A DNA stretch of 64,000 nt, from positions 11,147 through 75,146 of the forward strand of contig JANWWU010000066.1 of NCBI GenBank assembly GCA_025055595.1, given 5' to 3'. A model generated the notes under the pieces. The model did no database searches, was not told the DNA's origin, and worked only from the letters and a program-made list of their open reading frames with translations. Positions 23,944 to 57,902 of this stretch are shown here, one piece after another (the first letter of the stretch is position 1; the number at the start of each line of letters is the position of its first letter). The position numbers and the translations under genes were made by a program. The stretch comes from Planctomycetota bacterium (GTDB taxonomy: Bacteria; Planctomycetota; UBA11346).

Positions 23944-28494
<4,551 letters not shown>

Positions 28495-29997: not shown

Positions 29998-30903
29998 TCA
30001 CGGGCCGCGGCGCGGGCCGAGCCGGACGAGTTCGTCGCGCCAGGCCGCGGCCTGGCCCTCGCCGATCTGATAGAGCCAGCGCCGGGCGTCGGCGCCGTAG
30101 CCGGCGGTCGGCGCCAGCCAGCGGTGGCGCGCGCACCACCAGCGGTTGAACAGGTGCATGTGCAGCTCGCGCGCGTACTTGGCGATGCAGGAAGCGAGCG
30201 CGGGCAGCGGCCAGCGGCGGTCGGCGCCGACCGCGATCAGCACCTCGCTGGCCGCGACGCGGTAGCGGCGGGCGGCGCGCGCGGCGTCGACGAGCTGCAC
30301 CGCCGCTCCCGGCCAGATGCCGGACAGCCAGGGGCCGTAGTCGAGGCGCCCGCCGAGACGATCGATGACGATGCGTGTCGGTCGTCGCGGATCGGGCGCG
30401 AGCTCGCCGAGCACGGCGCCGACGGCGGCGAGCAGGCAGGCCGCGCGGTTGCGGCCGGCGGCCCGCGCCTCATTGAGCGCGCGCGGGTGCAGGATGCGCG
30501 CGCGCAGGCCGGCCGGGCTCAGGCCCGGCAGCCGCCAGGACGGCAGCGCGCGCGCCGCCAGCGGCACGCGCAGCTGCTCGGCGCCCTGCTGCCAGGGCGC
30601 CGAGCGCTGGTCGGCGGACTCGCCGCACAGCGCCAGCACATCGGCCGCGGTGTCGGGCTGGAAGCCGCTGAGCCAGGCGAGCGCCGGCAGGGCGACGCGC
30701 TCGAGCGGCGCGAGGTCGCCGGGACGATGCACGGCCTTGCTGTCGGCGACCCCGCAGCCGGCGAGCGCGGCGAGCGCCGCCTCGTCGTCGGCCGCGACCG
30801 CGACCGCGCAGACCACCAGCGGACCGAGCAGCGGACCGTAGCCGGCTTCGTCGACGCCGAGCTGCCGCTCAGCGCTTGGGCTCGGGGGGCAGGACGAAGT
30901 CAT
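29998..30903 (-). CDS. RNase H type-2 (RNase HII)-like protein, divergent
   Basis: Track ORF. N-terminal GVDEAGYGPLLGPLVV and …ADSK… correspond to RNase HII motifs (DEAGRGxLxGPVV, DSK), but with GRG changed to GYG and a long non-homologous C-terminus. Confidence 0.45.
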   Translation of the reverse strand: MTSSCPPSPSAERQLGVDEAGYGPLLGPLVVCAVAVAADDEAALAALAGCGVADSKAVHRPGDLAPLERVALPALAWLSGFQPDTAADVLALCGESADQRSAPWQQGAEQLRVPLAARALPSWRLPGLSPAGLRARILHPRALNEARAAGRNRAACLLAAVGAVLGELAPDPRRPTRIVIDRLGGRLDYGPWLSGIWPGAAVQLVDAARAARRYRVAASEVLIAVGADRRWPLPALASCIAKYARELHMHLFNRWWCARHRWLAPTAGYGADARRWLYQIGEGQAAAWRDELVRLGPRRGP

Positions 30904-31990
30904 CGGCGGCGAGCAGGCCCTGCACCCAGGAGACGAAGGCCGCGAAGGGGTAGGCGAGGCAGGCGATCGCCGTCTCCTCGGTCACCGGCAGCGGCGGGAA
31001 GCGGTCGCGCGCCAGCCGCGACAGCCGCTCGCGCATGCGCAGGCCGGCGAAGGCCTCGCGGTAGGGCGCCTGCTGCGCCGCGACCGCGACGCGGGCGTAG
31101 ATCTCGTGCAGCTGGATCAGCTTCTGCCACAGGCGGGCGATGCGAAAGCGCTTCTGCTCCGGGGTCTGGCCCTGCAGGAAGAGAAAGAGCTGCGGGGTCT
31201 CCTCCATCGCCGCCAGCCAGTGGTAGAGCGTCGGGTAGGCTTGGCCCTCCCGCGGATCGAACTCGTCGACCGCCATGTAGACGAGGAACACCTGCTTGTA
31301 GAAGCGCGCGCGGACGCGCTCGGCGAGCAGCGCCGCGAGCGCGGCCGCGCGCTCGCTCTCCGGCAGCGCCGCCAGCGAGCGCTCGGCCTCCGCGCCGAGG
31401 CGCGGGATGGCGACGGCATCGTGCCAGGTCGCATCGGCCTGCCGCTGGCGCAGGCGCTCGCGCAGCTCCTGGCAGCGCGCGGCGAAGCTCGCCGTCCACA
31501 CCAGGCTCTCGGCGAGCCGCGGCTCGCCGAAGGGCGGCAGCGGCCGCGCCAGCCGCGCCACGGCCTGGCAGGGCAGGGCGCGCAGCGCGTCGATGCCCAG
31601 CGTTTCGCCGAGGCGCTCCTGCAGCTGGCGGCGCAGCGTGCGGTACACCGCGATCGCATGGAGCTGCGCCTCGGCGACGCCGAGCCCGCTCTCGTCCCGC
31701 AGCAGGCACAGCTCGTCGATCAGCGCGGCGCGCACCGCGGCCTCGCGGTAGTGCTCGTCCTCGGCCAAGGCCGCAAGCAGCCGCTGCTGCAGGCGGCGCG
31801 CGCCCTCGTCCTCGAGCTCCGCAAGCAGCGCCGCCAGCCGGCCCTGAGCCGGCTGCTCGGCGAGCAGGCCGTCGCCGATCCCGCCCTCCGCCTCCTCGAT
31901 CAGCGCGCGATGGCGCGCGATCACGATCGGCCGCCGCGCCTCGGCGATGATCGCGGCATCGCTCGCTGCCTCGTCCGCTGCCTCGGCCAT
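30869..31990 (-). CDS. hypothetical protein
   Basis: Track ORF with balanced composition. Overlaps the downstream RNase HII-like gene by 35 nt on the same strand. No family recognised. Confidence 0.5.
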   Translation of the reverse strand: MAEAADEAASDAAIIAEARRPIVIARHRALIEEAEGGIGDGLLAEQPAQGRLAALLAELEDEGARRLQQRLLAALAEDEHYREAAVRAALIDELCLLRDESGLGVAEAQLHAIAVYRTLRRQLQERLGETLGIDALRALPCQAVARLARPLPPFGEPRLAESLVWTASFAARCQELRERLRQRQADATWHDAVAIPRLGAEAERSLAALPESERAAALAALLAERVRARFYKQVFLVYMAVDEFDPREGQAYPTLYHWLAAMEETPQLFLFLQGQTPEQKRFRIARLWQKLIQLHEIYARVAVAAQQAPYREAFAGLRMRERLSRLARDRFPPLPVTEETAIACLAYPFAAFVSWVQGLLAADDFVLPPEPKR

Positions 31991-44574: not shown

Positions 44575-45179
44575 ACGACAAGCGCGCCCTGCGCGCCGCG
44601 CTGCGCGCGGCGCGGCGCGCGCTGCCGCTGGCGCAGCGCGCGCGCGAGGCCGCGGCCGCCGTCGCGGCCTGCGCCCCGCTGAGCGCTGTCGAGGCCCTCG
44701 CCAGCTACGCCGCGCTGCCCGAGGAGCTCGACCTCGCGCCGCTGCATGCCGCGCGCTGGCAGCGCGGGCTGGCGGTGTACCTGCCGCGGGTCGTCGCCCG
44801 CGAGCTGGTCTGGCACGCGGTGCGCGATGCGGCCGAGCTGCGACCGGGCTACCGCGGGATCCCGGAGCCCGATCCCGACCTGCCGCTGTGCGCCCTGCCG
44901 CCGAACTGCCTGGTCCTCGTGCCGGGCCTCGGCTTCACCGCCGACGGCGCACGCCTCGGCCAGGGCGGCGGCTACTATGACCGCCTGCTCGCCGCACGGC
45001 CCGACCTGCGCAGCGTCGGCGTCGGCTTCTCCTGCCAGCTGCTGCCCGCGCTGCCGCAGGCCGCCCACGACCAGCGCCTCGGCGCCGTGCTGATCGCCGG
45101 GCAGTGGTTCCCGAGCGACGCCGTGGCGCGGCTCAGCGCTGGACGATCGGCAGGTACTGCAGCGGAATCTGCAGGATGA
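44568..45179 (+). CDS. 5-formyltetrahydrofolate cyclo-ligase (MTHFS)
   Basis: ATG within track ORF 43965..45179 (MVDDKRALRAALRAARRALP…GGGYYDRLL…). About 203 aa, typical for MTHFS. Confidence 0.75.
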   Translation: MVDDKRALRAALRAARRALPLAQRAREAAAAVAACAPLSAVEALASYAALPEELDLAPLHAARWQRGLAVYLPRVVARELVWHAVRDAAELRPGYRGIPEPDPDLPLCALPPNCLVLVPGLGFTADGARLGQGGGYYDRLLAARPDLRSVGVGFSCQLLPALPQAAHDQRLGAVLIAGQWFPSDAVARLSAGRSAGTAAESAG

Positions 45180-46131
45180 TCAGCGCCATCGCCGTGCCGT
45201 AGGCCGGACCCGGCCCCTCCAGGCCCGGCCAGCTGCCATCGGGCTGCTGGCGAGCGAGGATCGCCGGCGCCGCCAGCGCCCAGTAGCGCTCCCAGTCCTC
45301 GCGGTCCGGGCTGTGGAACATCGCCTGCGCCGCGTAGTACTGCCCGTACCAGAAGTAGTGGCCGCCCTGCAGATGGCCGGCGAGGTGGCGGCGCAGGAAG
45401 CGCAGCGCCGGACCGAGGTGCGGGTCGCCGGCGATCGGCACTCCGGCGCCGATCAGGGTCATCGCGCCGGCGGCGGCGCGCGGCACGCCCTCCGGGCCCT
45501 CGGTGCCCCAGCCGCCGCCGGCCGCGGTGTAGGTGAAGCTGCCGGTCCCGGTCGCGCAGCGCCGCACATAGGCGATCGCGCGCGCCGTCGCCTCGACGCT
45601 GGCCTGGCCGCCGATGCCGACGTTCCACGCCGCGCGCAGCGCCATCACCTGGCAGATCGTGACGCTGACATCGGCATCGATCGGCAGCGGCTGGTAGCGC
45701 CAGCCGCCCTCCTGGTTCTGGCTGCGGTGGATGAGGTCGACCGCGGCTTCGAGCGCGGCGCGGATTGGCTCGGCCGGCGCCATTCCATAGCACTCGGCGA
45801 GGAACAGCGTCGCGAAGCCGTGCGCGTACATGTTGCCGTAACCGCCGCCGAGGTAGCCGCGAGCGCGGTCCTGGCTCTGCAGGACGTAGCGCAGGGCGCG
45901 CCGGCACTGCTCGGCGTACTGGCCGCGCGTCGGCGTGTGGCCGCCGGCGAGGAAGGCCATGCCGGCGAGGGCGGTGATCCCCGGGCCCTCGCCGATCGCG
46001 CCATCGGGCTGCTGCAGGCGCGCCAGCGCCGCCAGGCCTCGGTCGATCGCCTGCTGCCAGCCCGCCGGCTCGCCGGCGTGGACGGCGGCGAGCAGGGCCG
46101 CGAGCGCGCTGCAGCGAGCGAGCAGACGCAT
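45133..46131 (-). CDS. secreted prenyltransferase/squalene-oxidase-repeat (terpene-cyclase-like alpha/alpha toroid) protein
   Basis: Track ORF. Signal peptide present. Repeated QxxDGxW-type motifs (QQPDGAIGEG, QNQEGGWRY, QQPDGSWPG). Confidence 0.7.
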   Translation of the reverse strand: MRLLARCSALAALLAAVHAGEPAGWQQAIDRGLAALARLQQPDGAIGEGPGITALAGMAFLAGGHTPTRGQYAEQCRRALRYVLQSQDRARGYLGGGYGNMYAHGFATLFLAECYGMAPAEPIRAALEAAVDLIHRSQNQEGGWRYQPLPIDADVSVTICQVMALRAAWNVGIGGQASVEATARAIAYVRRCATGTGSFTYTAAGGGWGTEGPEGVPRAAAGAMTLIGAGVPIAGDPHLGPALRFLRRHLAGHLQGGHYFWYGQYYAAQAMFHSPDREDWERYWALAAPAILARQQPDGSWPGLEGPGPAYGTAMALIILQIPLQYLPIVQR

Positions 46132-46206: not shown

Positions 46207-49200
46207 ATGGGCTTCACTGGCCAGCTCGGGTCCGTCAATCTCGCGGACATCTTCCAGACCCTGCAGGTCAACCGCCAGACCGGGACGATGACCGTCAGCA
46301 GCCCGAGCCAGGAGACGGTGCGGCTATGGTTCGCCGAGGGGATGATCGTGCTCTGCTCGGCGCCGACCGTCGAGGGCCGGCCCTTCCTGCTCCATATCCT
46401 GCTGCGCCGCGGGCTGGCGCCGGCCGAGGCGCTCGACGAGGCGCTGCGCCGCCAGCGGCAGACCGGGCAGGCGCTGCGCGATGTCCTGCTCAACACCGGC
46501 CTGATCGCCGAACCGGCGCTCGACGAGCTGGCGGTGTGGTGCGTCGAGGAGATCGTCTGCCCGATCTTCGAGTGGCAGGCCGGGCAGTTCAGCTTCGCCG
46601 AGGGCGACCCGCCGCCCGAGCTCAGCGGTCCGGAGGCGATCGCGATCCCCGCCGGCCTGCCGACGACCTCGCTGGTCATGGAGGCGACGCGGCGCCTGGA
46701 CGAGTGGCAGCGCATCCGCGCCGTGATCCCCGACGCCAACGCGCTGTACATCGTCGACAACGAGGGCCGCCAGAACCTGCGCAACGTGCAGACCGACCCC
46801 GAGCTGCTCAAGGTCCTGCGCTACCTCGACGGCCGGCACCTGCTCGACGGCATCGCCCAGGCGACCGGCTTGTCGCGCTTCGATGTCCACGCGATCGCCG
46901 CCCAGCTCGTCATCGCCGGCGTCGCGCGCGCGCGCAGCCTCGCCGAGATCGTCGACGACGCCCTGCAGCTCAAGCAGCGCGGCGAGCTGCCGGCGGCGCA
47001 GGCCCTGCTCGAGATCGCGCTGCGCGCCGCGCCGACCGCCGATGTGCAACGGCCGCTGGCCGAGATCTACGAGAAGCTCGGGCAGATCCCGCGCGCCGTC
47101 GAGCTGTACCTCGCGCTGCTGCAGCAGGCCCAGGACGCCGGCGACCTCGCGCAGGCCCGCGACTACCTCGACCTCCTCGTCCGGCTCTCGCCCGACGACC
47201 CCGACCTGCACTTCGAGCGCGCGCAGATCCTCGCCGAGCTCGGCAACCCCGAGCTCGCGACCCAGGGCTTCTGCACCGCGGCCCAGGGCTTCCTCGCGCT
47301 CAAGGCGGTCGCCAAGGCGATCGATGCCTGCCATCGCGCGAAGAACCTGCTGCCGCGCCAGCCCGATCCGCACCGCTACCTGGCGCGCGCCTACCTGCTC
47401 GATGGCAACACCGAGACCGCGGTCGTCGAGTACAAGGCGCTGTGGCACGCGCTGCTGACCGAGCAGTCGCCGCGCAAGGCGCTCGAGGCGCTGACGCGGA
47501 TCCTCGATAGCGACTGCAAGTACGCCGCGGTCAAGGAGCAGGTGCTGGCCTACGCACGCAACTCCGAGGCGGTGCGCACCAGCCGCGCGATCCGCCTGCT
47601 CGTCTACGCCGCGATCGGCGTCGTCCTCGGCTGCGGCCTGGTCGCCGGCTGGTGGTTCTACGAGCGCCACCTGCTGCGCGAGGAAGGCCTGCGCCGCCTG
47701 ACCGAGCTCGAGGCGGCGCTGCCGCACCAGCTGCAGGAGCTGCGGCACATCGCGCTGCGCCAGCAGCTGGCCGAGATCCGCGGGCACTACGGGGTGCGGG
47801 TGCCGGAGGTCGAGCTGCGCGCCAGCGCCCTCGAAGCCCAGGTGGCCGAAGACTTCGAACTGCGCGCCAGCGAAGAGCTCAAGCGCTGCGAGGCCCTGCG
47901 CGCCGCCGGCAAGTACCAGGAGGCGCTGCGCGCGCTCGACGACCTGGAGCGGACCTTCACCGCGACCCGCGCCGCCGCCGCCGTCCCGGAGGCGCGCACC
48001 CGCGTGCGCGCGGAAGAGATCGCGACCCAGGTCTACGCGCGCGTCGAGAGCGCCAAGCAGCGCTGGACCGCGCTCGACTGGGACGGGGCCCTCGCCGAGC
48101 TGACGCCGGTCCTCGCGCGCAGCGACCTGCCGGCGGCCCTGCGTCAGGAGCTGACCGAACTCCAGGTCGAGTGGCAGGCGGCGCTGCGCAGCGCGCGCCG
48201 GCTCTCCGAGCGCGCCGCCGCGATCCAGGCCCAGGGCGACCGCCGGACCGCGCTCGAGGCCTGGCGGCGCGCCGCCGATCCCGCCGCCGAGGGCGAGAGC
48301 GACCGCGCCGCCGCGCTCAGCCGGCTGACCGTGCTCGAACGCGACATCGCCGAGGGCCGGGCGCGCCAGGCCCAGGGCGCGGCGGCGCGCGGCGACCCCG
48401 TCGCCTGCTTCGCCGCGATCGACGAGCTGCAGGCGCTCGCCGGCCAGGCCCGCGGTCCGGGGCCCGGCGAGGTCCTGCAGGCGCTGACCCTGCCCTTCAC
48501 CGTGTTCCTCGACAGCCACCACACGACGCTGCAGATCGCGCGCCGCGATGGCGCCGCCGAGCAGCTGCGCGCGCCCCCCGGCCATCAGGGCCCCTGGCGC
48601 CAGGTGCTCGCCTGGCGGCTGAGCGAGCGTTGGACGCTGACCGCGGCGCGGCGCGGCTTCCTGTCGCAGTCGCTGTCGGTGTCGGCGGAGGCGCGGCGCG
48701 TCTCCGCCGACTTCACGCTGGTGCGCGGTCCGAAGTGGCGCTGCGAGCTCAGCGCGCGGCCGGTGTCGGCGCCGCGGCTGGTGCCGGGGGCGGTGCTCGT
48801 CGGCACCAACCGCACGACGCTGGAGTTCGTCGATCCCGCCCAGGGCACCCTGCGCACGCTGTCGTTCGGCGACGCCGTCGCCGAGCTGATCGACAGCCTC
48901 GCGATCCTCGGCCAGCACGGCTTCCTCGTCGTCGAGCAGCGCGTGCACGCCGTCGACCTCGCGGTGCGCGCCCGGGCCTGGGCCTGGCCGCCGCCGCACG
49001 AGAGCGGCCCGCGCCTGCTCGGCCGCCTGGCGGCCCTCGAGCATCCGCTGATCCCCAGCGTGCGCCTGGTGCTGGCGCCGGCTCCCGGCGAGCTGCTCGT
49101 CCTCGCGGTCGACGGCGAGCGCGTCGTCCGCTATCCCGGCCTGCGCTTGAGCGGCGAAGTCAGCGCCGCGCCGCTGGTCGATGCCCGCGACCCGCTGCGC

Positions 49201-49803
49201 CCCCTGGTCTGGCTGCCGCTCGGCGCGGCGCTGCTCGTCATCGACTGCAGCACGGTGACCGAACGGAACCCGCCGCGGCTGCTCGCCTCGCTGACCCTGA
49301 GCGGCGAGCTGCTGACCTCCCCGGTGCCGGCGCTCGTCGAGCAGGTCCCGGCGATCCTCGTTGCCGACAGCCGCGGCGTCGTCTCGGCGATCGATGCCCG
49401 GCCGGCGGCCGGCGGCCTGCTGCGCACGCTCGGCTCATGGACCCTGGAGAGCGCGCCGACCAGCGAGCCGATCCTCGCCGGCGACCGCACGGTGGCGGTG
49501 CTCGCCCTGCCCGAGGGGCGCCTCGCCTGCCTCGACCTCGCCCGCCCCGGCAGCCTGCGCTGGCGGGCCCCGGCGCGCCCGCTGAGCGCCGGCATCGTCG
49601 GCGCGCCGGCGATCGGCCAGCTCGGCGCCTATGCCGTCGACAGCGCTGGGATGCTGCACGCCTTCGCGCTCGTCGACGGCGCGCTGCGCTGGTCGGCGGA
49701 CCTCGGCGGCACCCCGGTCGGCGGGGTGCTGGCCAGCGACGGCGCCCTCTACATCCCGACCCGCGCCGGCCAGCTCGTCTGCTTCGAGGAAGGCGACGAG
49801 TGA
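46207..49803 (+). CDS. large multidomain protein: N-terminal DUF4388/PATAN-like domain, TPR-like helical region, single TM helix, long coiled-coil, C-terminal PQQ-like beta-propeller
   Basis: Track ORF, 1198 aa. The N-terminus MGFTGQLGSVNLADIFQTLQVNRQTGTMTV…VRLWFAEGMIV matches the DUF4388 signature. TM helix LLVYAAIGVVLGCGLVAGWWF. The C-terminus has repeated …G…L.A.D..TG..LW… blades. Confidence 0.8.
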   Translation: MGFTGQLGSVNLADIFQTLQVNRQTGTMTVSSPSQETVRLWFAEGMIVLCSAPTVEGRPFLLHILLRRGLAPAEALDEALRRQRQTGQALRDVLLNTGLIAEPALDELAVWCVEEIVCPIFEWQAGQFSFAEGDPPPELSGPEAIAIPAGLPTTSLVMEATRRLDEWQRIRAVIPDANALYIVDNEGRQNLRNVQTDPELLKVLRYLDGRHLLDGIAQATGLSRFDVHAIAAQLVIAGVARARSLAEIVDDALQLKQRGELPAAQALLEIALRAAPTADVQRPLAEIYEKLGQIPRAVELYLALLQQAQDAGDLAQARDYLDLLVRLSPDDPDLHFERAQILAELGNPELATQGFCTAAQGFLALKAVAKAIDACHRAKNLLPRQPDPHRYLARAYLLDGNTETAVVEYKALWHALLTEQSPRKALEALTRILDSDCKYAAVKEQVLAYARNSEAVRTSRAIRLLVYAAIGVVLGCGLVAGWWFYERHLLREEGLRRLTELEAALPHQLQELRHIALRQQLAEIRGHYGVRVPEVELRASALEAQVAEDFELRASEELKRCEALRAAGKYQEALRALDDLERTFTATRAAAAVPEARTRVRAEEIATQVYARVESAKQRWTALDWDGALAELTPVLARSDLPAALRQELTELQVEWQAALRSARRLSERAAAIQAQGDRRTALEAWRRAADPAAEGESDRAAALSRLTVLERDIAEGRARQAQGAAARGDPVACFAAIDELQALAGQARGPGPGEVLQALTLPFTVFLDSHHTTLQIARRDGAAEQLRAPPGHQGPWRQVLAWRLSERWTLTAARRGFLSQSLSVSAEARRVSADFTLVRGPKWRCELSARPVSAPRLVPGAVLVGTNRTTLEFVDPAQGTLRTLSFGDAVAELIDSLAILGQHGFLVVEQRVHAVDLAVRARAWAWPPPHESGPRLLGRLAALEHPLIPSVRLVLAPAPGELLVLAVDGERVVRYPGLRLSGEVSAAPLVDARDPLRPLVWLPLGAALLVIDCSTVTERNPPRLLASLTLSGELLTSPVPALVEQVPAILVADSRGVVSAIDARPAAGGLLRTLGSWTLESAPTSEPILAGDRTVAVLALPEGRLACLDLARPGSLRWRAPARPLSAGIVGAPAIGQLGAYAVDSAGMLHAFALVDGALRWSADLGGTPVGGVLASDGALYIPTRAGQLVCFEEGDE

Positions 49804-49847: not shown

Positions 49848-50453
49848 ATGCCGCAGCGCGCCTTCACCCTCGTCGAGCTGCTCGCGGTCATCGGCATCAT
49901 CGTCATCCTGATGGGCCTGGCGCTCGGCGGCGTGTCGCTGGCGCGCCGCAGCGCGCAGCGCGCGCGCACGGTCGGCGCGATCGCCGCCGTCGCCGCCGCC
50001 ATCGACCAGTACCGCAACCTCAACAACTGCTGGCCGGAGCACTTCACCGTCAGCGATGCCGTCGCCAACCATCCCCAGGCGCCGGAGGAGCTGCGCGCGC
50101 GCCGCTACGACCAGGTCTATCAGCGGGTCTTCGCGCCCGGCGGGCAGCTGCGGCCGGCCAGCGAGATCCCGCCCGAAGACTGGCGGGCGGTCAATGCCGC
50201 CCTCGCCTGGCAGCTCGCCGACCTGGCGCGCGAGCACCAGCGGCGCGGCCTCTTCCTCGACGCCTGGGAGGAGCCGCTGCGCTACCGCCCGGCGCGCTGG
50301 TACCCCTGGCAGAGCGGGGCGCGCGCGCGCATCGACAGCGACCAGCCGCCGCAGCCCGACAGCTACCAGCTGTGGTCGGCCGGTCCCGACCGCCGCGACG
50401 CCGAGGACCCCGGCGAGGGCGGCGACGACATCCCGAACTGGAACAGGCGCTGA
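49848..50453 (+). CDS. prepilin-type N-terminal cleavage/methylation domain protein (pseudopilin)
   Basis: ATG at 49848 inside track ORF 47652..50453. N-terminus MPQRAFTLVELLAVIGIIVILMGLALGG is the class-III signal/pilin motif with Glu+5. Confidence 0.75.
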   Translation: MPQRAFTLVELLAVIGIIVILMGLALGGVSLARRSAQRARTVGAIAAVAAAIDQYRNLNNCWPEHFTVSDAVANHPQAPEELRARRYDQVYQRVFAPGGQLRPASEIPPEDWRAVNAALAWQLADLAREHQRRGLFLDAWEEPLRYRPARWYPWQSGARARIDSDQPPQPDSYQLWSAGPDRRDAEDPGEGGDDIPNWNRR

Positions 50454-50460
50454 TGCCGGC

Positions 50461-51678
50461 ATGCGCCGCGGCTTCACCCTCACCGAACTGCTGGTCGTCA
50501 TCGGCATCGCCCTGCTGCTGATGGGCCTCTCGGTCGCCAGCGTGGTCCGCGGACCCTCGCTCCACCGGATGCTCGCCGCCGAGCAGCTGCTCGCCGACTG
50601 CATCCGCCAGGCCCGCCACCAGGCGCGCAGCAGCGGGCAGCCGGTGCTGCTCGTGCTCAGCCCCGAGGACGGCGCGATCAGCGGCCTGATCCGCCGGCTG
50701 CTGTGGACCCGCGAGGAGGGCTGGCCGCCGGCCCACGACGCCTTCTGGCCGGGACGCAGCGGCAGCGGCCTGCTGTTGCCCGACGCCTTCGCCGAGGATC
50801 CGGCGGCCGCAGCCAGCAGCGATGGCCTGCTCGAGGGTCCCGACCGCCTGGCGCGCGGGCTGCCGCCCGAGGCCCAGCGCGAGCTGCCGCGCCTGCTGCT
50901 GAGCGTCGCCGTGCGCCCGCCGCGCGCCGACCGCGGCCCTCTCGCGCTGCCGCTGGTCCTGGTCGGCGAGGAGAGCGAATACGGCGAGGAAAGCAGCGAC
51001 CTCGCGCGCAGCCAGCTCGGGCTGCTGCTGCTGCGCAGCGACGCCGACGCGCAGAGCGGCGCCGCGCCGCGCACCGTGCTGCCGGCCTGGGAGGTCCTCG
51101 GCTGGATCGTCGACGGCAGCGGCGAGCGGCACGAGATCTCCTCGCTCGCTCACGCCACCGAAAGCCGCGGGCGGACGCTGACCCTGGTGCACAGCGACGG
51201 CACCGCGGGCGCGATCAGCGGCTACGACCACGACGGGGCGATCGCCGGCGAGCGCTGGCTCGAGCTCGGCCTGCTCGTCGAGCCCGGGCGCCTGACGCTG
51301 TACCGCGATGGCCGGGAGATCGCGCAGCGCGCGCTGAGCGTAACCAGCCTGCGCTCGGCGCCCGGCGCGCGCGAACGCGTCGTCGTCGGCCGCATCCGCA
51401 TCCCGGGCTGGGATGCGGCGCGCTTCGCCCCGCCGGCCGGCGTCGTCTGGCTGATCGACAGCGTGCGCCTCGAGCGCCTCGGCACGGCGCCGGCGGCGCT
51501 GCTGCCTGCGGGCGTGCAGGTCGCCGCGCCGGCGCGCATCCGCTGCCATCCCGATGGCCGCGTCGAGTGCGAGGGCGAGCTCGCGCTGCGCAGCGACAGC
51601 GGGGAGAGCGCGATCGTCACGGTCTCGGGCAGCGGGCTGGTGACGAGCGCCACCCGCCTGCGTGCGGAGGACCGATGA
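50461..51678 (+). CDS. prepilin-type N-terminal cleavage/methylation domain protein (long pseudopilin, 405 aa)
   Basis: ATG at 50461 inside track ORF 50056..51678. N-terminus MRRGFTLTELLVVIGIALLLMGLSVA (G|FTLTE). The stop overlaps the next ATG (ATGA). Confidence 0.7.
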   Translation: MRRGFTLTELLVVIGIALLLMGLSVASVVRGPSLHRMLAAEQLLADCIRQARHQARSSGQPVLLVLSPEDGAISGLIRRLLWTREEGWPPAHDAFWPGRSGSGLLLPDAFAEDPAAAASSDGLLEGPDRLARGLPPEAQRELPRLLLSVAVRPPRADRGPLALPLVLVGEESEYGEESSDLARSQLGLLLLRSDADAQSGAAPRTVLPAWEVLGWIVDGSGERHEISSLAHATESRGRTLTLVHSDGTAGAISGYDHDGAIAGERWLELGLLVEPGRLTLYRDGREIAQRALSVTSLRSAPGARERVVVGRIRIPGWDAARFAPPAGVVWLIDSVRLERLGTAPAALLPAGVQVAAPARIRCHPDGRVECEGELALRSDSGESAIVTVSGSGLVTSATRLRAEDR

Positions 51679-54600
51679 GGCGCGGCGCCGCCCTCGTCCT
51701 CGCCCTGGCGATCCTCGCCAGCCTGCTGTTCCTCGCCCTGCCCTTCGTCTTCAGCCAGACGGCGAGCGTCGGCGGGGCGCGCAGCGCGGCCTGGGACCAC
51801 GAGGCGCGGCGCATCCTCGCGGCGAGCGAGCACGAGGCGGTGGCGGCGAGCATCAGCGCGCTCGCCGCCCTCGCCGCGGGCGAAGCGACGAACTCCCTGC
51901 CGCACGACCTCGCGGAGCGCGCCGGCTACAGCGTCGTCGTCGAGCACCCGGGGCGCGCCGTCCTCAGCAACCTGCCGGCCTCGGGGTCGACGCAGCGCGG
52001 GCTCGCGATCGAGGACGAATACGGCAAGCTCGATGTCAACAGCCTCGGCCCCGAGGCCTGGGGGCGCCTGTTGGCGGACCTCGACATCCCCGATCCGACG
52101 ACTTGGCGCTGGGTGTGGAGCGGGGGCCAGCCCAACGCGCAGCCGGCGCTGCTGCAGCACGGCAGCTGGCAGCCGCTGCCCTACGGCCGGCTGGCGATCG
52201 CCCTCGCCCGCCACCGCCTGCGCCTGCCCAGCGGCCGCTACCACGACCTCGCCGAACTGCTCGCCGCCGACCCCCGCCGCGCGCAGCCGGCGCAGGCGCC
52301 CTTCGGCGCCGTCGAATACGGCTCTGGCGCGCGCGACCAGGAGAGCTTCGAGCCGCTGATCAGCCGCCTGATCCCCGACTGGGAGCAGCAGCTCTTCGGC
52401 GCCGGCGGCCTGCTCGACCGCCAGGGACCCTACCGCGCTCACCCGCTGACCCGCGTCGAGTGGGAGCGCCTGCTGCCGCACCTGACCGTGCACGCCCTCG
52501 GCCAGGGGCGGGCGGGCTGCGCCGACCTCGGCACGGTCATCGCGCTGAGCCAGGTGCCGAACCACAACGACCACAGCATGATCAGCGATCTCGTCGCCGC
52601 TCCCGCGGCCCTCAACCGTCTGGTCCCCGCCTTCGCCTGGCTGGTCGGCGCGCGCCGCGACGGCCGCCTGTACCGCGGCCGCCGCCACCTCGATGGGCTG
52701 ACGGTCGAGTCTGTCGCCTCCCCGCTCGCCGATCCCGGGCTGCCGCTGGCCGTCGAGCTGCCGGCCTGGGTCAACGCCAACACGATGACCGAGCCCGTCG
52801 CGGCAGCGCTCAACGCCCAGCTGCCAAAGCAGCCGCTGGCGGCGCTCGCCGCCCTGCCGCCCGACAGCTGGTGGCCCTTCGCGCTTGCGAACACCGGCCA
52901 GCCCTCGACCTGGCGGCCGCCGCTCGCCGTCCTCAGCCTCGGCGCGATCCGCATCGAGGCGGCGACGACGGTGATGGCGGCGGGGCAGATCACCGCCCAG
53001 CGCCAGCGCCGCAGCGTGTGGCAGGCCCTGCCGGCGAGCGTCGAACGGCGCTGGCGCAGCCAGGCCGAGCTCGAGGCGCTGTGCCGCCTCGGCCTGCCCT
53101 CGGGCAGCGTCAGCGGCCCCCAGCCGCTGCTGCGGCGCAGCGTGCCCGGCGAGCTGCTGGCGGGCGACGGTTGGCTGGAGCCCGCGCCGCTCGCGTCCTT
53201 CGCCGACAACCCCGCGCTGTCGCTGCCGCAGCGCGCCAACCTGCCCGCCGACGAGGGGCTGGTGCCGGCCGGCTACCAGCGCGCCTTCTCCGCGCCGCTG
53301 GCCAGCCTCTGCCTGCTGCGCAGCGGCAGCGACGAGTTCGCCCCCCAACAGCTGAGCCTCCGCTTCGCCCTCGACGGCGAGGCCAGCGCCGCCGCCGTCC
53401 TGTTCGCGGCGCGAACCGGCGACGGCAGCGCGCCGCGCGGCCGCTGGCGGCTGCGTTGGGAAGGCGCGGGCGCCGAGGCGGAGCGCTGGCAGGGGCAGCT
53501 GGTCCTCGAGGTCGCTGGCCTCGCCCTGCCCTGGGAGCGGGACCACCCCTGGACGATGGCTGCCGACGACCCGCGCACCGCCGACATCGACGAGCGCTGC
53601 CTGCCCGGCCCGCTCTCCCTCGCCCCGCGCCGCCCCGGGCCGCCGCACGAGGAGTTCCGCTACCGGGCGGAGCTCGCCCGCGGCACGATCCACCACCTGC
53701 AGCTGTGGTACGCCGGGCCGCAGCCCGGGCAGTATGGGCTGGCGGTCGACGGCATCGTCGGCCGCGACGCGATCAGCGGCCGGGACTTCGCGCGTTTCGG
53801 CGATCACTATCCCTTCCCCGCCTTGCGCCTGGCCGAGGACATCCCGGCCAGCGACCCCCTCCGCGAAGGCGGGGCCGCGCTGAGCCGGCCCGAGCGCATC
53901 CGTCTGCTCGCCCCGCCGGGCCTGCGCCTCGCCGAGCTGCTGCCGGCGCGCGGCCTGATCCGCATCGACGACGAGTACTTCAGCTACGAGGGCATCGACG
54001 GCGACGCGCTGCGCGGCGTCCGCCGCGGGCGGCGCCAGAACTGCAACCCGACCGCGGTGATCCGCACCCTGGTCCGCCCCGGCCCGCCGGCGGAGTACCG
54101 CGACGATCCCGACCACGCCAAGCGCTGGCCGGCGACCCAGGCCCACCGCGCCGGCGCCCTGGTGCTGCCCGGCGACTGGCTGACGCGCATCGAGGCCGGC
54201 GTCGACGCCGACCGCCGCTGGCTGCGCGGCGCGACGACGCTCGCCGACCCCCTGCAGGCCGAGGCCGTGACCGAGGAGATCGACATCCGCTCCTGGCCGG
54301 TGGTCAATGGCCAGCGCCTCTATCCGAGCGAGATCCCGGTCCGCGGCCCCTGGCCGGAGCGCGGCATCCTGCGCTTCGAGGTCAATGTCAGCGAGAACAA
54401 GGCGGCCTTCGTCCGCGAGGGCGAGCGCCTGCGCCTCGACTGGCGGCCGCCGATCGCCTCGGGAACGCCCGAGGGCGCGGCTCCCCTGATGCCGCCGGCC
54501 TTCACGAGCCGCGCCAGCGTCACCATCCGCCTGATCAGCCTGCGCGTCGCCGACGACGCCGACCTGACGCACACGCCGACCACCGAGCGCCTGCGCTTCG

Positions 54601-56510
54601 CCCGCAGCGGCTGGCTGCAGCTGCTCGACCCGCAGAGCGGCCGCTGCGAGTGGGTGCGCTATGACGACCTCGCGGTGCGCGAGCCGCCGTGCCAGGTCAC
54701 TGGTCGCTTCTTCATCCATGAGCAGGGCTGGGACATGGCGCCCTTCGCGACGCCGCAGCCTGCGGCTCAGCCGCGCGGGGCCTGGCGCACGCCCTGGCGC
54801 CGCGACAGCCCCTGGCCGGCGGGAACCCGCGTGCTGCCGGTGCAGACCCTGCTGCCCGATGTCCGCGGCCTCGAGTCCGGCGATGTCTGCACCGTCGTCG
54901 CCGACCGCGCGCCGCTGCCCTGGCCGCCGCTGCAGCTGATCGTCCGCCATGCCGCCAGCGACGGCCTGCCGTGGACGAGCAGCGAGACCGGCTTCGAAGC
55001 GCCGGCCTCCTTCTTCGCGTTGACCGAGGCCGTCCCCGATGGCATCCCCGACGCGACGCTGCGCGATCAGAGCAACCGCCTCCTCCCGCAGCCGGCCGGC
55101 GCCGCCACCATCCTGGTCGGCCGCGGCTGGCGCGGCGCCGACCTCAGCCCGGTCCATCCCGTGCAGACGCGGCGCGGCCAGGGACCGCGCGCCAGCGCCT
55201 GGGGCGCGCAGGCGACGCTCGCGATCGGCGGCCCGGGCCTGCTCGTCGACGACATCGCCAGCGGCCCGCTGCTGTCCGGCCTGCTCGGCGACGCGGCAAG
55301 CGAGAACGGCTGCCGGGTCGTCGCGCTCTCCGGCGACCGCGATCAGCCGGTCGAGATCGCCGGCGAAGGCGCGCGCGGCTTCCCGCTGCGCGTGCAGAGC
55401 AACGCCGAGGTCTTCACCAGGCCCTACGGCATCATCGACATCGGCGGCGAGGTTTTCGCCTATCGCCGCTTCGATGCCCGGCACGCCGACCTGATCGGCC
55501 GCGCCCTGCTCGGCAGCGCGGCGCGCGCCCAGGGCCTGCCGAGCCTCGCCGAGCGCGGGCGCGGTGTCGCCTCGCCCGACAGCCCCTTCCACGGCCTGCC
55601 GCTCATCCCCCTGCCCTTCGGTCCGGTCGGCGAGCTGATGGGCGAGGGCCTGCTGCTGCCGGCGACGGCGAGCGCGACTGCGCTCGGGACCCGCGGGGCG
55701 CTCGGCGAGGACCTCGAGCTGTGCGACCGGCCCTACGACGAGCACCGCAGCGCGGCGCTGCCCGCCAACCCCGCGCAGCGCTCGCCCTACGAGCCGAGCC
55801 CGCTGCGCGCGCCGGTGCAGCTGCTCCACCACCCGCACGACGGCAGCGCCGAGGTCCTGCGCTTCCTCCGCCACCCCGACCTCGAGCAGGTGCTCACCGC
55901 GCCCTGGCTGCGCGGCCTCTACGGCACCGCGCCGCAGGCCTGGCAAGGGGCCTTCGGCCTGGCGCGCCGCCGTTCCTGGCGCGATCCGCTGCCCGACTGG
56001 CAGCCGCCGCCGCTCGGCAGCGGTCGGCTCAACCCGCTGGTCATCGGCTGGTGGCCGAGCCGGCCGGCGCCGCTCGCCGACCTCGGCCTCGCCGACCGCG
56101 ACCGCCACGCCCAGCTGCGCTGCCGGCTCTACGGCTGGTTCGCCTACGGGCTGCAGTGCTACGGCCTGCGCCCGCTTCAGGCCGAGGTCGAGGTGCTGAG
56201 CCTCGGCGGCGCCGAGGCGCTCGCGGCCCGCCTGCTGGTGCCCGGCGGCAGCGGCCTCGAGCTCTCGGACTGGGGCGCCATGCCCGAGGAGCTGCTGGCC
56301 GAGGGCAAGCACACCTTCGGCTTCGGACACGCGCGGCAGCGCGCCGGCGGCGCCGGCTGCGAGCTGCGCCTGCACTGGCTGCCGGCCAGCGCTCAGGGGA
56401 GCTGGGCCGAGCGCTGGTCCGCCAATCAGGGCCTGCGTCCCCGCCTCGGCGCGGTGGCGCTGCGCGCTCAGGCCGCGGTCCAGACCCTGGCTGTCGAAGC
56501 CGTCCGCTGA
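51675..56510 (+). CDS. giant (1611 aa) membrane-anchored protein with GspK-like (T2SS minor pseudopilin K) N-terminal features followed by ~1250 aa of uncharacterised sequence
   Basis: ATG at 51675 inside track ORF 50703..56510, overlapping the upstream stop. N-terminal hydrophobic anchor AALVLALAILASLLFLALPFVF. Then IEDEYGKLDVNSL, resembling the GspK DExxKxNxN motif, and helical hairpin-like segments. The rest is non-degenerate but unassigned. Confidence 0.65.
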   Translation: MRRGAALVLALAILASLLFLALPFVFSQTASVGGARSAAWDHEARRILAASEHEAVAASISALAALAAGEATNSLPHDLAERAGYSVVVEHPGRAVLSNLPASGSTQRGLAIEDEYGKLDVNSLGPEAWGRLLADLDIPDPTTWRWVWSGGQPNAQPALLQHGSWQPLPYGRLAIALARHRLRLPSGRYHDLAELLAADPRRAQPAQAPFGAVEYGSGARDQESFEPLISRLIPDWEQQLFGAGGLLDRQGPYRAHPLTRVEWERLLPHLTVHALGQGRAGCADLGTVIALSQVPNHNDHSMISDLVAAPAALNRLVPAFAWLVGARRDGRLYRGRRHLDGLTVESVASPLADPGLPLAVELPAWVNANTMTEPVAAALNAQLPKQPLAALAALPPDSWWPFALANTGQPSTWRPPLAVLSLGAIRIEAATTVMAAGQITAQRQRRSVWQALPASVERRWRSQAELEALCRLGLPSGSVSGPQPLLRRSVPGELLAGDGWLEPAPLASFADNPALSLPQRANLPADEGLVPAGYQRAFSAPLASLCLLRSGSDEFAPQQLSLRFALDGEASAAAVLFAARTGDGSAPRGRWRLRWEGAGAEAERWQGQLVLEVAGLALPWERDHPWTMAADDPRTADIDERCLPGPLSLAPRRPGPPHEEFRYRAELARGTIHHLQLWYAGPQPGQYGLAVDGIVGRDAISGRDFARFGDHYPFPALRLAEDIPASDPLREGGAALSRPERIRLLAPPGLRLAELLPARGLIRIDDEYFSYEGIDGDALRGVRRGRRQNCNPTAVIRTLVRPGPPAEYRDDPDHAKRWPATQAHRAGALVLPGDWLTRIEAGVDADRRWLRGATTLADPLQAEAVTEEIDIRSWPVVNGQRLYPSEIPVRGPWPERGILRFEVNVSENKAAFVREGERLRLDWRPPIASGTPEGAAPLMPPAFTSRASVTIRLISLRVADDADLTHTPTTERLRFARSGWLQLLDPQSGRCEWVRYDDLAVREPPCQVTGRFFIHEQGWDMAPFATPQPAAQPRGAWRTPWRRDSPWPAGTRVLPVQTLLPDVRGLESGDVCTVVADRAPLPWPPLQLIVRHAASDGLPWTSSETGFEAPASFFALTEAVPDGIPDATLRDQSNRLLPQPAGAATILVGRGWRGADLSPVHPVQTRRGQGPRASAWGAQATLAIGGPGLLVDDIASGPLLSGLLGDAASENGCRVVALSGDRDQPVEIAGEGARGFPLRVQSNAEVFTRPYGIIDIGGEVFAYRRFDARHADLIGRALLGSAARAQGLPSLAERGRGVASPDSPFHGLPLIPLPFGPVGELMGEGLLLPATASATALGTRGALGEDLELCDRPYDEHRSAALPANPAQRSPYEPSPLRAPVQLLHHPHDGSAEVLRFLRHPDLEQVLTAPWLRGLYGTAPQAWQGAFGLARRRSWRDPLPDWQPPPLGSGRLNPLVIGWWPSRPAPLADLGLADRDRHAQLRCRLYGWFAYGLQCYGLRPLQAEVEVLSLGGAEALAARLLVPGGSGLELSDWGAMPEELLAEGKHTFGFGHARQRAGGAGCELRLHWLPASAQGSWAERWSANQGLRPRLGAVALRAQAAVQTLAVEAVR

Positions 56511-56549
56511 ACGGCTCGGCATCAAGCGGGAGACCGCGCCTCCGATGCT

Positions 56550-56948
56550 ATGTCTGCGATGGACTCCTGGCTGCGCATCGGGGAAACGACCGCCTACCAG
56601 GGCGGAACGCCGCGCCAGCACAACGGCGGCACCGGTCGCTTCGCGCAGAAGCAGCGCGACGAGGGGCAGCGGCGTCAGCGCGAGTACGAGCCCGAGCCGG
56701 CGAGCGACCAGGCGCCGCCCGATCCCCTGTTGGCGGAGATCGACCGCCTGCGCGCGCTCGAGCCGACGCGCGGCGACAGCGGGGCGCGCCGCGCCCTGCG
56801 CGCCCGCCTCGCCTATGCGCGCCACCAGGATCTCCCGCTGTCGCCGCCGATCACCAGCGATGCGGCCAGCAGCGAGACGACGACCGCGGTCTGGAAGCAG
56901 CCAGCGCCGCCCGCAGCGCCCCCTGGCGTGCCGCCCGCCAGCCCCTAG
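56550..56948 (+). CDS. small hypothetical protein (132 aa)
   Basis: Track ORF. High GC3 and mixed composition. Sits in the 450-bp gap between the giant gene and fabD. No family. Confidence 0.35.
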   Translation: MSAMDSWLRIGETTAYQGGTPRQHNGGTGRFAQKQRDEGQRRQREYEPEPASDQAPPDPLLAEIDRLRALEPTRGDSGARRALRARLAYARHQDLPLSPPITSDAASSETTTAVWKQPAPPAAPPGVPPASP

Positions 56949-56966
56949 GCTGACAGTGGAGCGAGC

Positions 56967-57902
56967 ATGTCGCGAGCCCTCGTCTTCCCCGGCCAGGGCG
57001 CCCAGTATGTCGGCATGGGCGTCGAGCTGGCGCAGCGCTTCCCCGCCGCCCGCGCCCTGCTCAGCGAGGCCGACCGCGTGCTCGGCTTCGCGCTCTCCGA
57101 CATCATGGCTAACGGCCCGGAGAGCGACCTGACGCGCACCGATGTCAGCCAGCCGGCGATCTTCGTCGCCAGCGCGATGAGCCTGGCGGTGGCCGAGGAG
57201 GCGCTGCAGCCGCTGACCCGCGCCGCCTGCGCCGGCCTCAGCCTCGGCGAGTACACGGCGCTCTACGCCGCCGGCGCGATCGGCTTCGCCGAGGCCCTGC
57301 GCCTCGTCCGCCTGCGCGGGCAGGCGATGCAGGCGGCGGCCGAAGCGACGCCGGGCGGGATGGTCGCGCTGATCGGGGCCGACGAGGCGCAGGCGCGGGC
57401 GCTGTGCGCCGAAGCTGCTGCCGGCGAGGTGCTGACCGTCGCCAACCTCAACAGCCCGGGGCAGGTCGTGATCTCGGGCGCGCGCGGGGCCTGCGTCCGC
57501 GCCCTCGAGCTCGCCAAGAAGCACGGGATCCGCCGCGCGACCAGCCTGGCCGTCGCCGGCGCCTTCCACAGCCCGCTGATGCAGCCGGCGGCCGAGCGTC
57601 TGGCCGAGGCCGTCGCCGCCCTGTCCTGGCGCGACCCGCAGCGCCCGGTGTACAGCAATGTCACCGCCGCCCCGCTGACGCGCGCCAGCGAGATCCCCGA
57701 GCTGCTGGTCCGCCAGCTGACCTCCCCCGTCCGCTGGGCCGACAGCGTGCGCGCGCTGCACGCCGCCGGGATCAGCGAGTTCCTCGAGCTCGGCCCGGGC
57801 AAGACGCTCTGCGGGATGATCGCGCGCACCGTCGAGGGCGTGCAGTGCCGCAACCTCGACACCGCCGAGGATGTCCGCGCGCTGGTCGCCGCCGGCGCCT
57901 GA
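56967..57902 (+). CDS. fabD: malonyl-CoA:ACP transacylase
   Basis: Track ORF. Motifs …FPGQGAQYVGMG…GLSLGEYTAL… (active Ser)…. Confidence 0.95.
   Translation: MSRALVFPGQGAQYVGMGVELAQRFPAARALLSEADRVLGFALSDIMANGPESDLTRTDVSQPAIFVASAMSLAVAEEALQPLTRAACAGLSLGEYTALYAAGAIGFAEALRLVRLRGQAMQAAAEATPGGMVALIGADEAQARALCAEAAAGEVLTVANLNSPGQVVISGARGACVRALELAKKHGIRRATSLAVAGAFHSPLMQPAAERLAEAVAALSWRDPQRPVYSNVTAAPLTRASEIPELLVRQLTSPVRWADSVRALHAAGISEFLELGPGKTLCGMIARTVEGVQCRNLDTAEDVRALVAAGA

Follow-up and report, generated by a model that had tools for sequence, protein, structure and literature searches.

Type IV filaments, among them T2SS pseudopili, type IV pili and competence pili, are primed and capped by K-type minor pilins. 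According to recent work, a C-terminal beta-strand licenses assembly of the tip; it comes from the K pilin or, alternatively, from a separate giant adhesin (PMC13533445). In GspK and CpaL the strand is part of the same chain, and the C-terminus of CpaL folds back as a beta-strand onto its pilin module (PMC13533445). Functional modules are also carried, for presentation on the filament, by the modular type IV pilins, examples being S. sanguinis PilB (vWA module) and PilC (ConA-like lectin module) and ETEC CofB (Raynaud et al. 2021, PMC8179133). The InterPro survey of modular pilins was keyed on IPR012902, and the most extreme multi-domain example cited is 860 aa long (PMC8179133).

A 64,000-nucleotide stretch of DNA from a Planctomycetota bacterium (hereafter, the window) was analysed. 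It contains a very large gene preceded by two pseudopilin genes, arranged as follows:

46207..49803, + strand: cassette gene 1, DUF4388/TPR protein of 1198 aa (Pfam, NCBIfam)
49848..50453, + strand: GspG-like (major-type) pseudopilin of 201 aa, N-terminus MPQRAFTLVELL (Pfam, NCBIfam)
50461..51678, + strand: GspH-like minor pseudopilin of 405 aa, MRRGFTLTELL... (Pfam, NCBIfam)
51675..51678, + strand: ATGA start/stop overlap of the GspH-like gene and the giant gene (sequence)
51675..56510, + strand: giant gene, 1611 aa plus stop codon (translation, codon-position G+C, gene caller, NCBI entry, HMMER relatives)

The G+C content of the window is ~75% and long ORFs are present in all frames, including a 2179-aa ORF at 51222..57761 on the antisense strand, opposite the giant gene. 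Since such DNA opens long ORFs in any frame, ORF length by itself is no evidence. Codon-position G+C, determined over 52001-56800 in the + frame from 51675, was ~0.78, 0.55 and 0.95 at positions 1, 2 and 3, respectively, while GC3 of the rival antisense frame was only ~0.78; the frame of the giant gene is settled by this pattern. The giant ORF translates to 1611 aa with zero internal stops, and a codon-usage gene caller gave it the second-highest score in the window. The ATG at 51675 is preceded by GGAGGA. It forms an overlap (cgATGAgg) with the stop codon TGA of the gene before it, as noted in an earlier sequence-only reading, this gene being that of the GspH-like pseudopilin; in most related loci, the giant gene begins with an identical 4-nt overlap. 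This start is supported by the homologues, which begin alike with a short basic leader and an R-x-G-A-A-L-hydrophobic segment. A scan for promoters and terminators revealed nothing informative in the 75% G+C DNA. NCBI holds an identical 1611-aa entry, 'MAG: hypothetical protein RMM29_01760 [Planctomycetota bacterium]'. We conclude that the giant gene is a real gene.

Relatives of the giant protein were recovered by exhaustive HMMER search. Word-indexed searches, whether the query was the protein or a 43-sequence alignment, recovered nothing beyond the protein itself and one distant relative, probably because the candidate list was swamped by low-complexity A/L/R words. The sequence-only reading had proposed looking for the same fusion elsewhere, and ~120 representative clusters, mostly of 1600-2200 aa, were found. 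All 48 genome loci of the family belong to Planctomycetota MAGs, often with 2-4 copies of the giant gene per genome, in paralogous cassettes. Members with a source name are all called "hypothetical protein", and no Pfam or curated NCBIfam assignment was found for the members checked. Thus, the family is unannotated and, in these 48 loci, found in Planctomycetota only; the family is conserved, as is its pseudopilin cassette.

The conserved order of the cassette is DUF4388/TPR protein, GspG-like, GspH-like, giant and a third pseudopilin, tentatively GspJ-like. The 1198-aa protein matches Pfam DUF4388 (E 8.5e-25), TPR repeats and PQQ_2, contains an MshEN-like c-di-GMP-binding motif at aa 64-107 (NCBIfam c-di-GMP_motif, MshE-related, E 1.3e-6), and ends in a PQQ/BamB-like beta-propeller. 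Homologues with 38-45% identity occupy the same place upstream of pseudopilin genes in 12 related loci, and the protein probably acts as a regulator or scaffold within the filament system. The GspG-like pseudopilin (Pfam N_methyl, E 3e-5; NCBIfam typeII_sec_gspG, E 2e-9, under the cut-off) has a homologue in the same slot in 22 related loci, and the GspH-like protein (Pfam N_methyl and GspH, E 8e-4; NCBIfam typeII_sec_gspH, E 3e-6) has one immediately 5' of the giant gene in 32. The latter protein is enlarged by a C-terminal extension, which in three of four homologues scanned scores as a ConA-like Laminin_G_3 domain (E 5e-6 to 6e-3; weak in locus L050). In 26 related loci, the giant gene is followed by the GspJ-like gene. 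This gene was absent from the window; a 129-aa ORF at 56559-56948 was rejected as its remnant, since its N-terminus is not hydrophobic and it does not resemble the J-like family. In the main cassette type, a GspI-like gene was not recognised. Compared with the gsp operon, the order is G-H-K-J instead of G-H-I-J-K, and no gspC/D/E/L/M adjoin the cassette in the window or in the 48 related loci. An assembly ATPase, platform protein, secretin or prepilin peptidase was not found in the window. In a tblastn search with E. coli GspC-O, the matches were limited to G- and J-like N-termini and to GspF homologues, which occur in 5 related loci at a distance of 7-9 kb. Genes for a PilS-like kinase, a PilC-type platform, PilM and MglA/MglB-like proteins are present near related loci.

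Structure prediction and family alignment divide the giant protein into the following parts:

51675..53084, + strand: head, predicted GspK/PilK-type minor-pilin module, aa 1-470 (predicted structure)
53085..53279, + strand: low-confidence linker between head and body, aa ~471-535 (pLDDT)
53280..56474, + strand: body, predicted compact, mostly-beta multi-domain unit, aa ~536-1600 (predicted structure)
53292..53954, + strand: predicted concanavalin-A/laminin-G-like jelly roll, aa ~540-760, approximate (body model)
56439..56507, + strand: conserved C-terminus, aa 1589-1611, LGAVALRAQAAVQTLAVEAVR (family alignment)

The head begins with a basic leader, MRRG, and a hydrophobic helix, AALVLALAILASLLFLALPF, which lacks Glu at +5 and extends to aa 68. 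The family consensus is RxG followed by AALIIALVILAALLLLGLPF, with Gly at -1 of the putative cleavage site. In the head model, the helix leads into a globular pilin domain that harbours a helical/HhH part; as in 3CI0 chain K, a large helical domain interrupts the beta-sheet. Motifs of the head include IEDEYGKLDVNSL (aa ~112-124) and VNANT (aa ~365-369). The closest structures are GspK (PDB 3CI0 chain K) and XcpX (5VTM chain X), with 18-21% identity over the aligned part. In the linker region, the head model has pLDDT <50 at aa 475-560, and values are moderate at the start of the body model. The GspK HMM NF037980 matched aa 357-400 with 18.1 bits (E 0.0015), below its curated cut-off of 130 bits, and the best relatives (E 3.6e-6 to 7.4e-11) are still far under it. 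Alignment of the head family with the single E. coli K-12 GspK sequence by hhalign paired aa 2-60 with aa 2-63, i.e., the N-terminal helix only, at a probability of 30%. No Pfam match (T2SSK included) was obtained with the whole protein, with four ~400-aa tiles (E <= 10) or with 31 relatives. N_methyl/TIGR02532 (the IPR012902 motif) also failed to match the giant protein or the 31 relatives, as expected for K-type pilins, which lack Glu+5. As judged from the model, the first ~470 aa of the giant protein have the GspK fold, in agreement with the assignment first made from the sequence of the N-terminus. Family members (1611-2198 aa) are five to seven times larger than GspK/XcpX (~300-330 aa; NF037980), a roughly fivefold expansion having been suspected initially; they share the GspK fold of the head and differ by a ~1100-aa body behind the pilin module.

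A head of this kind could also cap a short T2SS-type pseudopilus confined to the periplasm, with the body serving as a piston head or a docking platform to substrates or secretin and never displayed outside. The nearest structures, GspK and XcpX, are indeed T2SS proteins, GspG and GspH models give the best scores for the neighbours, and a folded body of ~120 kDa, which would have to cross a secretin or stay periplasmic, is perhaps hard to pass through one. We nevertheless consider this role rather unlikely, since T2SS and T4P K-type proteins are indistinguishable by fold alone, the T2SS genes listed above do not accompany the cassette, the PilS-like kinase, PilM and MglA/MglB-like genes near relatives are typical of type IVa pili, and the paralogous cassettes suit alternative minor-pilin/adhesin sets better than one piston.

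The body (aa ~536-1611) was modelled as a compact, beta-rich unit with pLDDT 84 and pTM 0.87. Its length had been put at ~1250 aa; it is ~1100-1140 aa. The sequence-only reading had found no nameable motif in it. This view is to be amended for one ConA/LamG-like jelly roll, which carries the family motif W-Y-H-L-Q-V ... D-G-x-V-G-R-D (W672, D692, G693, G696), and stands for the rest, for which nothing alike was found in PDB or Pfam and no global relative outside the family. About 850 body residues are confidently predicted and have an unrecognised fold. PDB sequence and profile searches with the giant protein gave nothing except a match of the TM helix to Nad3, dismissed as chance, and Foldseek matches of the whole body to phage tail nozzles in PDB (TM 0.10) are noise. 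A PilY1-type propeller was not found in the giant protein or in the relatives scanned. The amino acid composition is skewed (A+L+R+G+P = 56%, K 0.3%), but self-BLAST revealed no internal repeats and the fold is predicted with high confidence; the sequence-only reading had described the body as not low-complexity. A short recurring motif (I-x-I-D/G-D/G-E-Y/V-F/I-S/A-Y ... R-G) has weak profile support (two copies, probability 63%, 26 columns). The body is thus predicted to be a folded unit with one lectin-like domain.

The extreme C-terminus has the family consensus IGxVRLRCxAPxxVLAVExxR-COOH; in ~60 of 69 full-length relatives, the spacing between this motif and the stop is constant. In the body-only model, all conserved parts are structured except the last ~11 residues (pLDDT 44-62). 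By analogy with GspK and CpaL, this C-terminus is a candidate beta-strand that returns to the pilin module. Such conservation is expected for assembly of a tip complex, and it argues against exaptation of the GspK-like module as the membrane anchor of a bitopic inner-membrane/periplasmic protein, possibly a jelly-roll glycan-processing enzyme, that acts outside filaments. That alternative is also at odds with the conservation of the entire K-module fold in the family, and not merely its helix, and with the gene being always embedded among prepilin-type genes and translationally coupled to one; we regard it as distinctly improbable. That the long ORF is an artefact, formed by chance in 75% G+C DNA or by assembly or frameshift fusion, is in our view refuted and retains next to no probability: high-GC DNA does yield very long spurious ORFs, such as the antisense one, and the source is a metagenome-assembled genome, but the codon-position GC pattern is even over the entire ORF, ~69 relatives of at least 1500 aa, drawn from independent assemblies, are colinear from end to end, and the structure models are confident.

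Among described proteins, PilX/PilK together with PilY1/PilC offer a functional analogy, i.e., a filament-priming K-type pilin with a tip adhesin of at least 1000 residues and variable binding domains. The PilY1/PilC adhesins have a C-terminal propeller (IPR008707) and a Sec-type signal peptide, whereas no such propeller was found in the giant protein, which begins with a pilin-type helix. CpaL (Caulobacter Tad, type IVc pilus) and ComZ (Thermus) are examples of K-type or minor pilins into which a large adhesin domain is inserted. Their architecture resembles that of the giant family: a minor-pilin-like module at the N-terminus, then a large middle domain that sits on the tip (presumably so in the giant family), and lastly an extreme C-terminus that is conserved. 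With modular type IV pilins, the giant protein shares the concept of a functional module, ConA-like lectins included, on a pilin module, the two being represented by its head and its separate body; the adjacent H-like pseudopilin also fits this class. The grafted part is, however, ~1100-1700 aa long and mostly of unrecognised fold, and the N-terminus is K-type and lacks IPR012902. TIGR02600 describes Verru_Chthon cassette protein A, large proteins from pseudopilin cassettes of Verrucomicrobia. There, too, a very large protein accompanies several prepilin-type genes in a phylum related to Planctomycetota, but HMM scans do not support a relationship: TIGR02600 did not match the giant protein at E <= 0.1 and matched only 1 of 54 relatives (E 0.008; 1 of 31 in a first set and 0 of 23 in a further set), so this identity was rejected. 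Both neighbouring pseudopilins weakly match cassette protein D (TIGR02596; E 8e-5 and 2e-4) in the N-terminal helix only.

We favour, as fairly probable, the reading that the giant protein is a K-type tip-initiating minor pilin of a Planctomycetota-specific type IV filament, with a binding body at the tip. By analogy, it most likely unites the roles of PilX and PilY1 in a single chain, with a built-in adhesin. Points against this reading are the lack of filament machinery and of the GspJ-like gene in the window, the absence of a recognised GspI-like gene, scores below every curated threshold, and the size of the folded body, for which the choice would be between crossing a secretin and remaining in the periplasm. 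Processing, tip location, a binding function and return of the C-terminal strand, all of which we infer, would proceed as follows. The N-terminal hydrophobic helix would insert the protein in the cytoplasmic membrane, and a prepilin peptidase would remove the short MRRG leader. The K module would then join the GspH-like pseudopilin, and in relatives also the GspJ-like one, in a filament-capping initiation complex, below which GspG-like subunits would polymerise on a PilC/GspF platform; because they polymerise underneath, the giant body would ride at the filament tip. The extreme C-terminus would fold back and complete the K-module beta-sheet, as in GspK and CpaL. Given the ConA/LamG lectin fold predicted in the body and the second one in the H-like subunit of relatives, our best guess is that the body binds a ligand, most likely glycans; with ~850 residues of no recognisable fold, an enzymatic or other role is also possible.

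Gold-labelled dextran bound pili-like fibres of P. limnophila and G. obscuriglobus (PMC5394234), and no gene-level definition of the composition of Planctomycetota surface fibres, or of their role in macromolecule capture, was found in the literature. The family is a candidate component of these fibres, and its ~850 residues of unmatched, confidently predicted fold offer a target for discovering new structure and function. In a combined reading, which we hold to be quite unlikely, its members would be the largest known pilin-type subunits, self-contained 'PilX + PilY1' tip machines capping polysaccharide-binding planctomycete fibres. If so, the own C-terminal strand of each tip machine would license assembly, and the 2-4 cassettes would be alternative lectin tips 'fishing' for different macromolecules under c-di-GMP and MglA-type control. 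If the assignment as a K-type tip pilin is true, the family would represent an extreme natural case, with pilin and adhesin in one chain of 1600-2200 residues, and a useful test of the licensing model.

Since G+C is ~75% across the whole window, long ORFs occur in every frame and ORF length is no evidence for a gene. The giant gene is the fourth and last of four tightly spaced co-directional genes, and other long ORFs overlap it:

45133-46131, minus strand: prenyltransferase/squalene-cyclase-like gene, upstream of the cassette
46207-49803: 1198-aa protein with DUF4388, an MshEN-like c-di-GMP-binding motif, TPR repeats and a BamB-like propeller
46396-46527: the MshEN-like motif, aa 64-107 of the 1198-aa protein (NCBIfam NF053729, E 1.3e-6, below cut-off)
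49848-50453: GspG-like pseudopilin
50461-51678: GspH-like pseudopilin, 405 aa
51675-56510, plus strand: giant gene
50703-56510, plus strand: overlapping 1935-aa ORF in the giant gene's frame, from an upstream GTG
51662-54664, plus strand: further long overlapping ORF, other frame
51222-57761, minus strand: 2179-aa antisense ORF, overlapping the giant gene

The status of 51675-56510 was therefore decided by codon-position G+C. In the plus-strand frame from 51675 (52001 to 56800), G+C at codon positions 1/2/3 was ~0.78/0.55/0.95, which matches genuine genes elsewhere in the window, and before 51675 it is the preceding gene's frame that has the high GC3. Third-position G+C of the antisense ORF would be only ~0.78, versus ~0.95 for the plus frame; codon-position GC was not gene-like in any of the three overlapping ORFs, which were rejected as by-products of 75% G+C. 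A simple codon-usage gene caller gave 51675-56510 the second-best score in the window, its 1611-aa translation is stop-free, and an identical protein is held at NCBI as a hypothetical protein from a Planctomycetota MAG (346-kb contig). We conclude that the giant ORF proposed in the sequence-only reading is real. The start/stop overlap with the preceding pseudopilin gene, also claimed there, is seen in the sequence: the ATG, preceded by GGAGGA, overlaps the upstream TGA (ATGA).

The giant protein contains one hydrophobic segment only (aa 1-32), which comes directly after MRRG and lacks a Glu at +5; the absence of this Glu is a hallmark of minor pilins of the K type. The head was modelled with AlphaFold2 (aa 1-560, with 49 relatives; pLDDT 76, pTM 0.75) and showed a GspK fold, with good folding up to ~aa 470 and a helix at aa 2-68. 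The NCBIfam GspK model matched the giant protein with 18 bits (aa 357-400 against profile positions 202-247) and 7 of 54 relatives, with E-values down to 3.6e-6 and 7.4e-11; in one relative, P0119, aa 14-137 aligned to profile positions 2-106. Neither the giant protein nor any of the seven relatives comes near the curated cut-off, which is 130 bits. This makes the head remotely homologous to GspK/PilK-type pilins and not a GspK orthologue, and it is in this sense that the GspK-like N-terminus suggested earlier stands. The giant protein shares the fold of GspK/PilX-class tip pilins, to which we liken its working mode, but fails GspK on curated sequence thresholds, operon context and size, and so was not filed as GspK. 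No PilY1 propeller was found in it, and the Verrucomicrobia cassette protein A family, considered as a relative, had no supported link to it. In structure, the giant protein qualifies as a 'modular pilin', but it lacks IPR012902, the motif on which the modular-pilin survey was keyed; the most extreme multi-domain example cited there has 860 aa (PMC8179133).

Word-indexed homologue searches did not recover the family. An exhaustive HMMER search (query aa 1-1200; 1.84 billion representative proteins) returned 119 relatives at E <= 1e-3, including 46 at E <= 1e-30, with a typical length of 1600-2200 aa. The query is colinear over the full length with 69 sequences of 1500 aa or more, sharing with them a common N-terminus (R-x-G-A-A-L-I-I-A-L-V-I-L-A-A-L-L-L-L-G-L-P-F-L-F-S-Q-S) and a common C-terminus, which disposes of the objection that the gene is a fusion artefact. 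Pfam gave no match for the giant protein or for any of the relatives scanned (31/31), and the relatives' clusters that were looked up were nameless or 'hypothetical protein'. A genome scan using two narrow peptide patterns only, with one genome per species, revealed 48 loci, all in Planctomycetota, Planctomycetales, planctomycete or 'Ca. Kuenenia' MAG records, with single MAGs often holding 2-4 of them. Cultured planctomycetes were not among the matches, a weak absence given such patterns. Loci from 'Candidatus Kuenenia' MAGs (L024, L026, L030, L031) have a G+C of 66-68%, which does not fit the ~41% of K. stuttgartiensis; the label is therefore distrusted, with mislabelling or contamination of the bins as possible causes. 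We see in the giant proteins a family of very large K-type pilins that is unannotated and restricted to one phylum.

The body was modelled separately (aa 500-1611, with 54 relatives; pLDDT 84.2, pTM 0.87) and was predicted to be a single compact assembly, mainly beta, with few helices. It contains one concanavalin-A/laminin-G-like jelly roll, whose position, near aa 540-760, we infer from the conserved motif W-Y-H-L-Q-V ... D-G-x-V-G-R-D and from the order of the strands. A Foldseek search with the complete body as query gave no meaningful match (best TM 0.10), leaving roughly 850 body residues whose fold is confidently predicted but has no detectable relative. Charged residues invariant in 43 full-length members include D710, H711, E767, R784, R787, H824, E992, D1070, D1096 and D1192. 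A short motif, G-h-h-x-I-D/G-D/G-E-Y/V-F/I-S/A-Y ... R-G, recurs in the body, as does E-W-x-x-Y:

aa ~760-787 (window ~53952-54035): first copy
aa ~988-996 (window ~54636-54662): second copy
aa ~1252-1279 (window ~55428-55511): third copy

Several invariant residues fall in this motif. Profile comparison of the copies linked only the first and third, weakly (probability 63%, 26 columns). It may bear some likeness to a motif in phage tail proteins.

Genes for the DUF4388, G-like and H-like proteins lie upstream in 12, 22 and 32 related loci, respectively (tblastn with the window's cassette proteins), and most loci also share the 4-nt overlap between the H-like and giant genes. Directly 3' of the giant gene, 26 loci encode a prepilin-type protein of 370-440 aa whose N-terminus is most like GspJ. 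No GspJ-like gene follows the giant gene in the window, where the 456-bp gap to fabD (56511-56966) holds only a doubtful 129-aa ORF (56559-56948) with a weak coding signal, rejected as a pilin gene for want of pilin features; the fifth cassette gene seems to have been lost in this copy or to be located elsewhere. The GspG-like pseudopilin has Ala before its FTLVELL segment (MPQRA|FTLVELL, window 49848-49880), where Gly is canonical in prepilins. The GspH-like pseudopilin is enlarged (405 aa versus ~170 for GspH); its homologues in relatives score sub-threshold for a Laminin_G_3 (ConA-like) module, and the tip complex may thus carry two lectin-type domains. The MshEN-like motif of the DUF4388 protein hints at a filament system that would respond to c-di-GMP.

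The rest of the window contains no filament machinery, the remaining genes being housekeeping. For four genes that are clearly coding (8750-11692, 12711-13220, 13231-14211 and 30869-31990, all minus strand), one with a 980-aa product, Pfam gave no match at E <= 0.001; their neighbours are housekeeping genes, ruvB, a DisA-type cyclase and folP among them. An NrpR-type regulator (22953-23936, plus strand; Pfam NRD1_2, E 3e-55) lies directly 5' of the glutamate synthase large subunit gene (23944-28494, plus strand); NrpR is known mainly as an archaeal nitrogen repressor.

Several relatives carry PilS-like kinase and PilC/GspF genes downstream of the cassette (in L025, a T2SSF gene and the kinase ~5-7 kb downstream), and GspF homologues occur in five related loci. 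Four loci (L004, L005, L007, L025) encode, ~3-7 kb 5' of the giant gene, what looks like an MglA/MglB-like polarity module: a small GTPase of Arf/Ras type with three proteins that have Roadblock/LC7 domains, one of them TPR-fused. In L025 this set lies 5' of the DUF4388 gene. None of these genes is in the window. At the locus of P0120, a more distant paralogue (L050), the gene run is FHA, PilM_2, TPR, pseudopilin, LamG-pseudopilin and giant, after which come another two genes that are pilin-like. Taken together, the family is part of a type IV filament system, closer in character to type IVa pili than to a classical T2SS.

In the established model, the filament is capped and primed by a K-type pilin in complex with I and J pilins, and GspK itself has an inserted alpha-domain (PMC8179133). 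A 2026 study reports that a C-terminal beta-strand completing the K-pilin sheet licenses tip assembly, supplied in trans by PilC/PilY1 and, by AlphaFold modelling, MshQ, or in cis by GspK and by the K-like protein CpaL, which has ~600 aa and an adhesin middle part of ~470 aa (PMC13533445). The giant family follows the logic of CpaL at much larger size, with a K module followed by a very large middle body and a conserved extreme C-terminus. That terminus (...V-R-L-R-C-x-A-P-x-x-V-L-A-V-E-x-x-R-COOH) is conserved to the last residue in ~60 of the 69 members, and its final ~11 residues are the sole conserved stretch left unstructured in the body-only model. By analogy, the return of this candidate strand to the K module is plausible, if somewhat doubtful, head and tail coming from separate models (aa 1-560 and within aa 500-1611).

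A purely periplasmic T2SS-type pseudopilus head would share the K module, and is unlikely beside the type IVa-like gene context. Another rival is a periplasmic enzyme that is anchored in the membrane through the GspK-like module and no longer enters filaments; with pilin genes recurring around the giant gene, we consider it very improbable. The chance that the ORF is an artefact is negligible. Dextran-binding fibres have been seen on Planctomycetes (PMC5394234); that the giant proteins cap them is quite unlikely, partly because the matches include no cultured planctomycete. We favor, as the probable reading, a minor pilin that initiates the tip and carries its own adhesin: the giant protein would start the filament tip, and its body would act as the adhesin, probably binding glycans.
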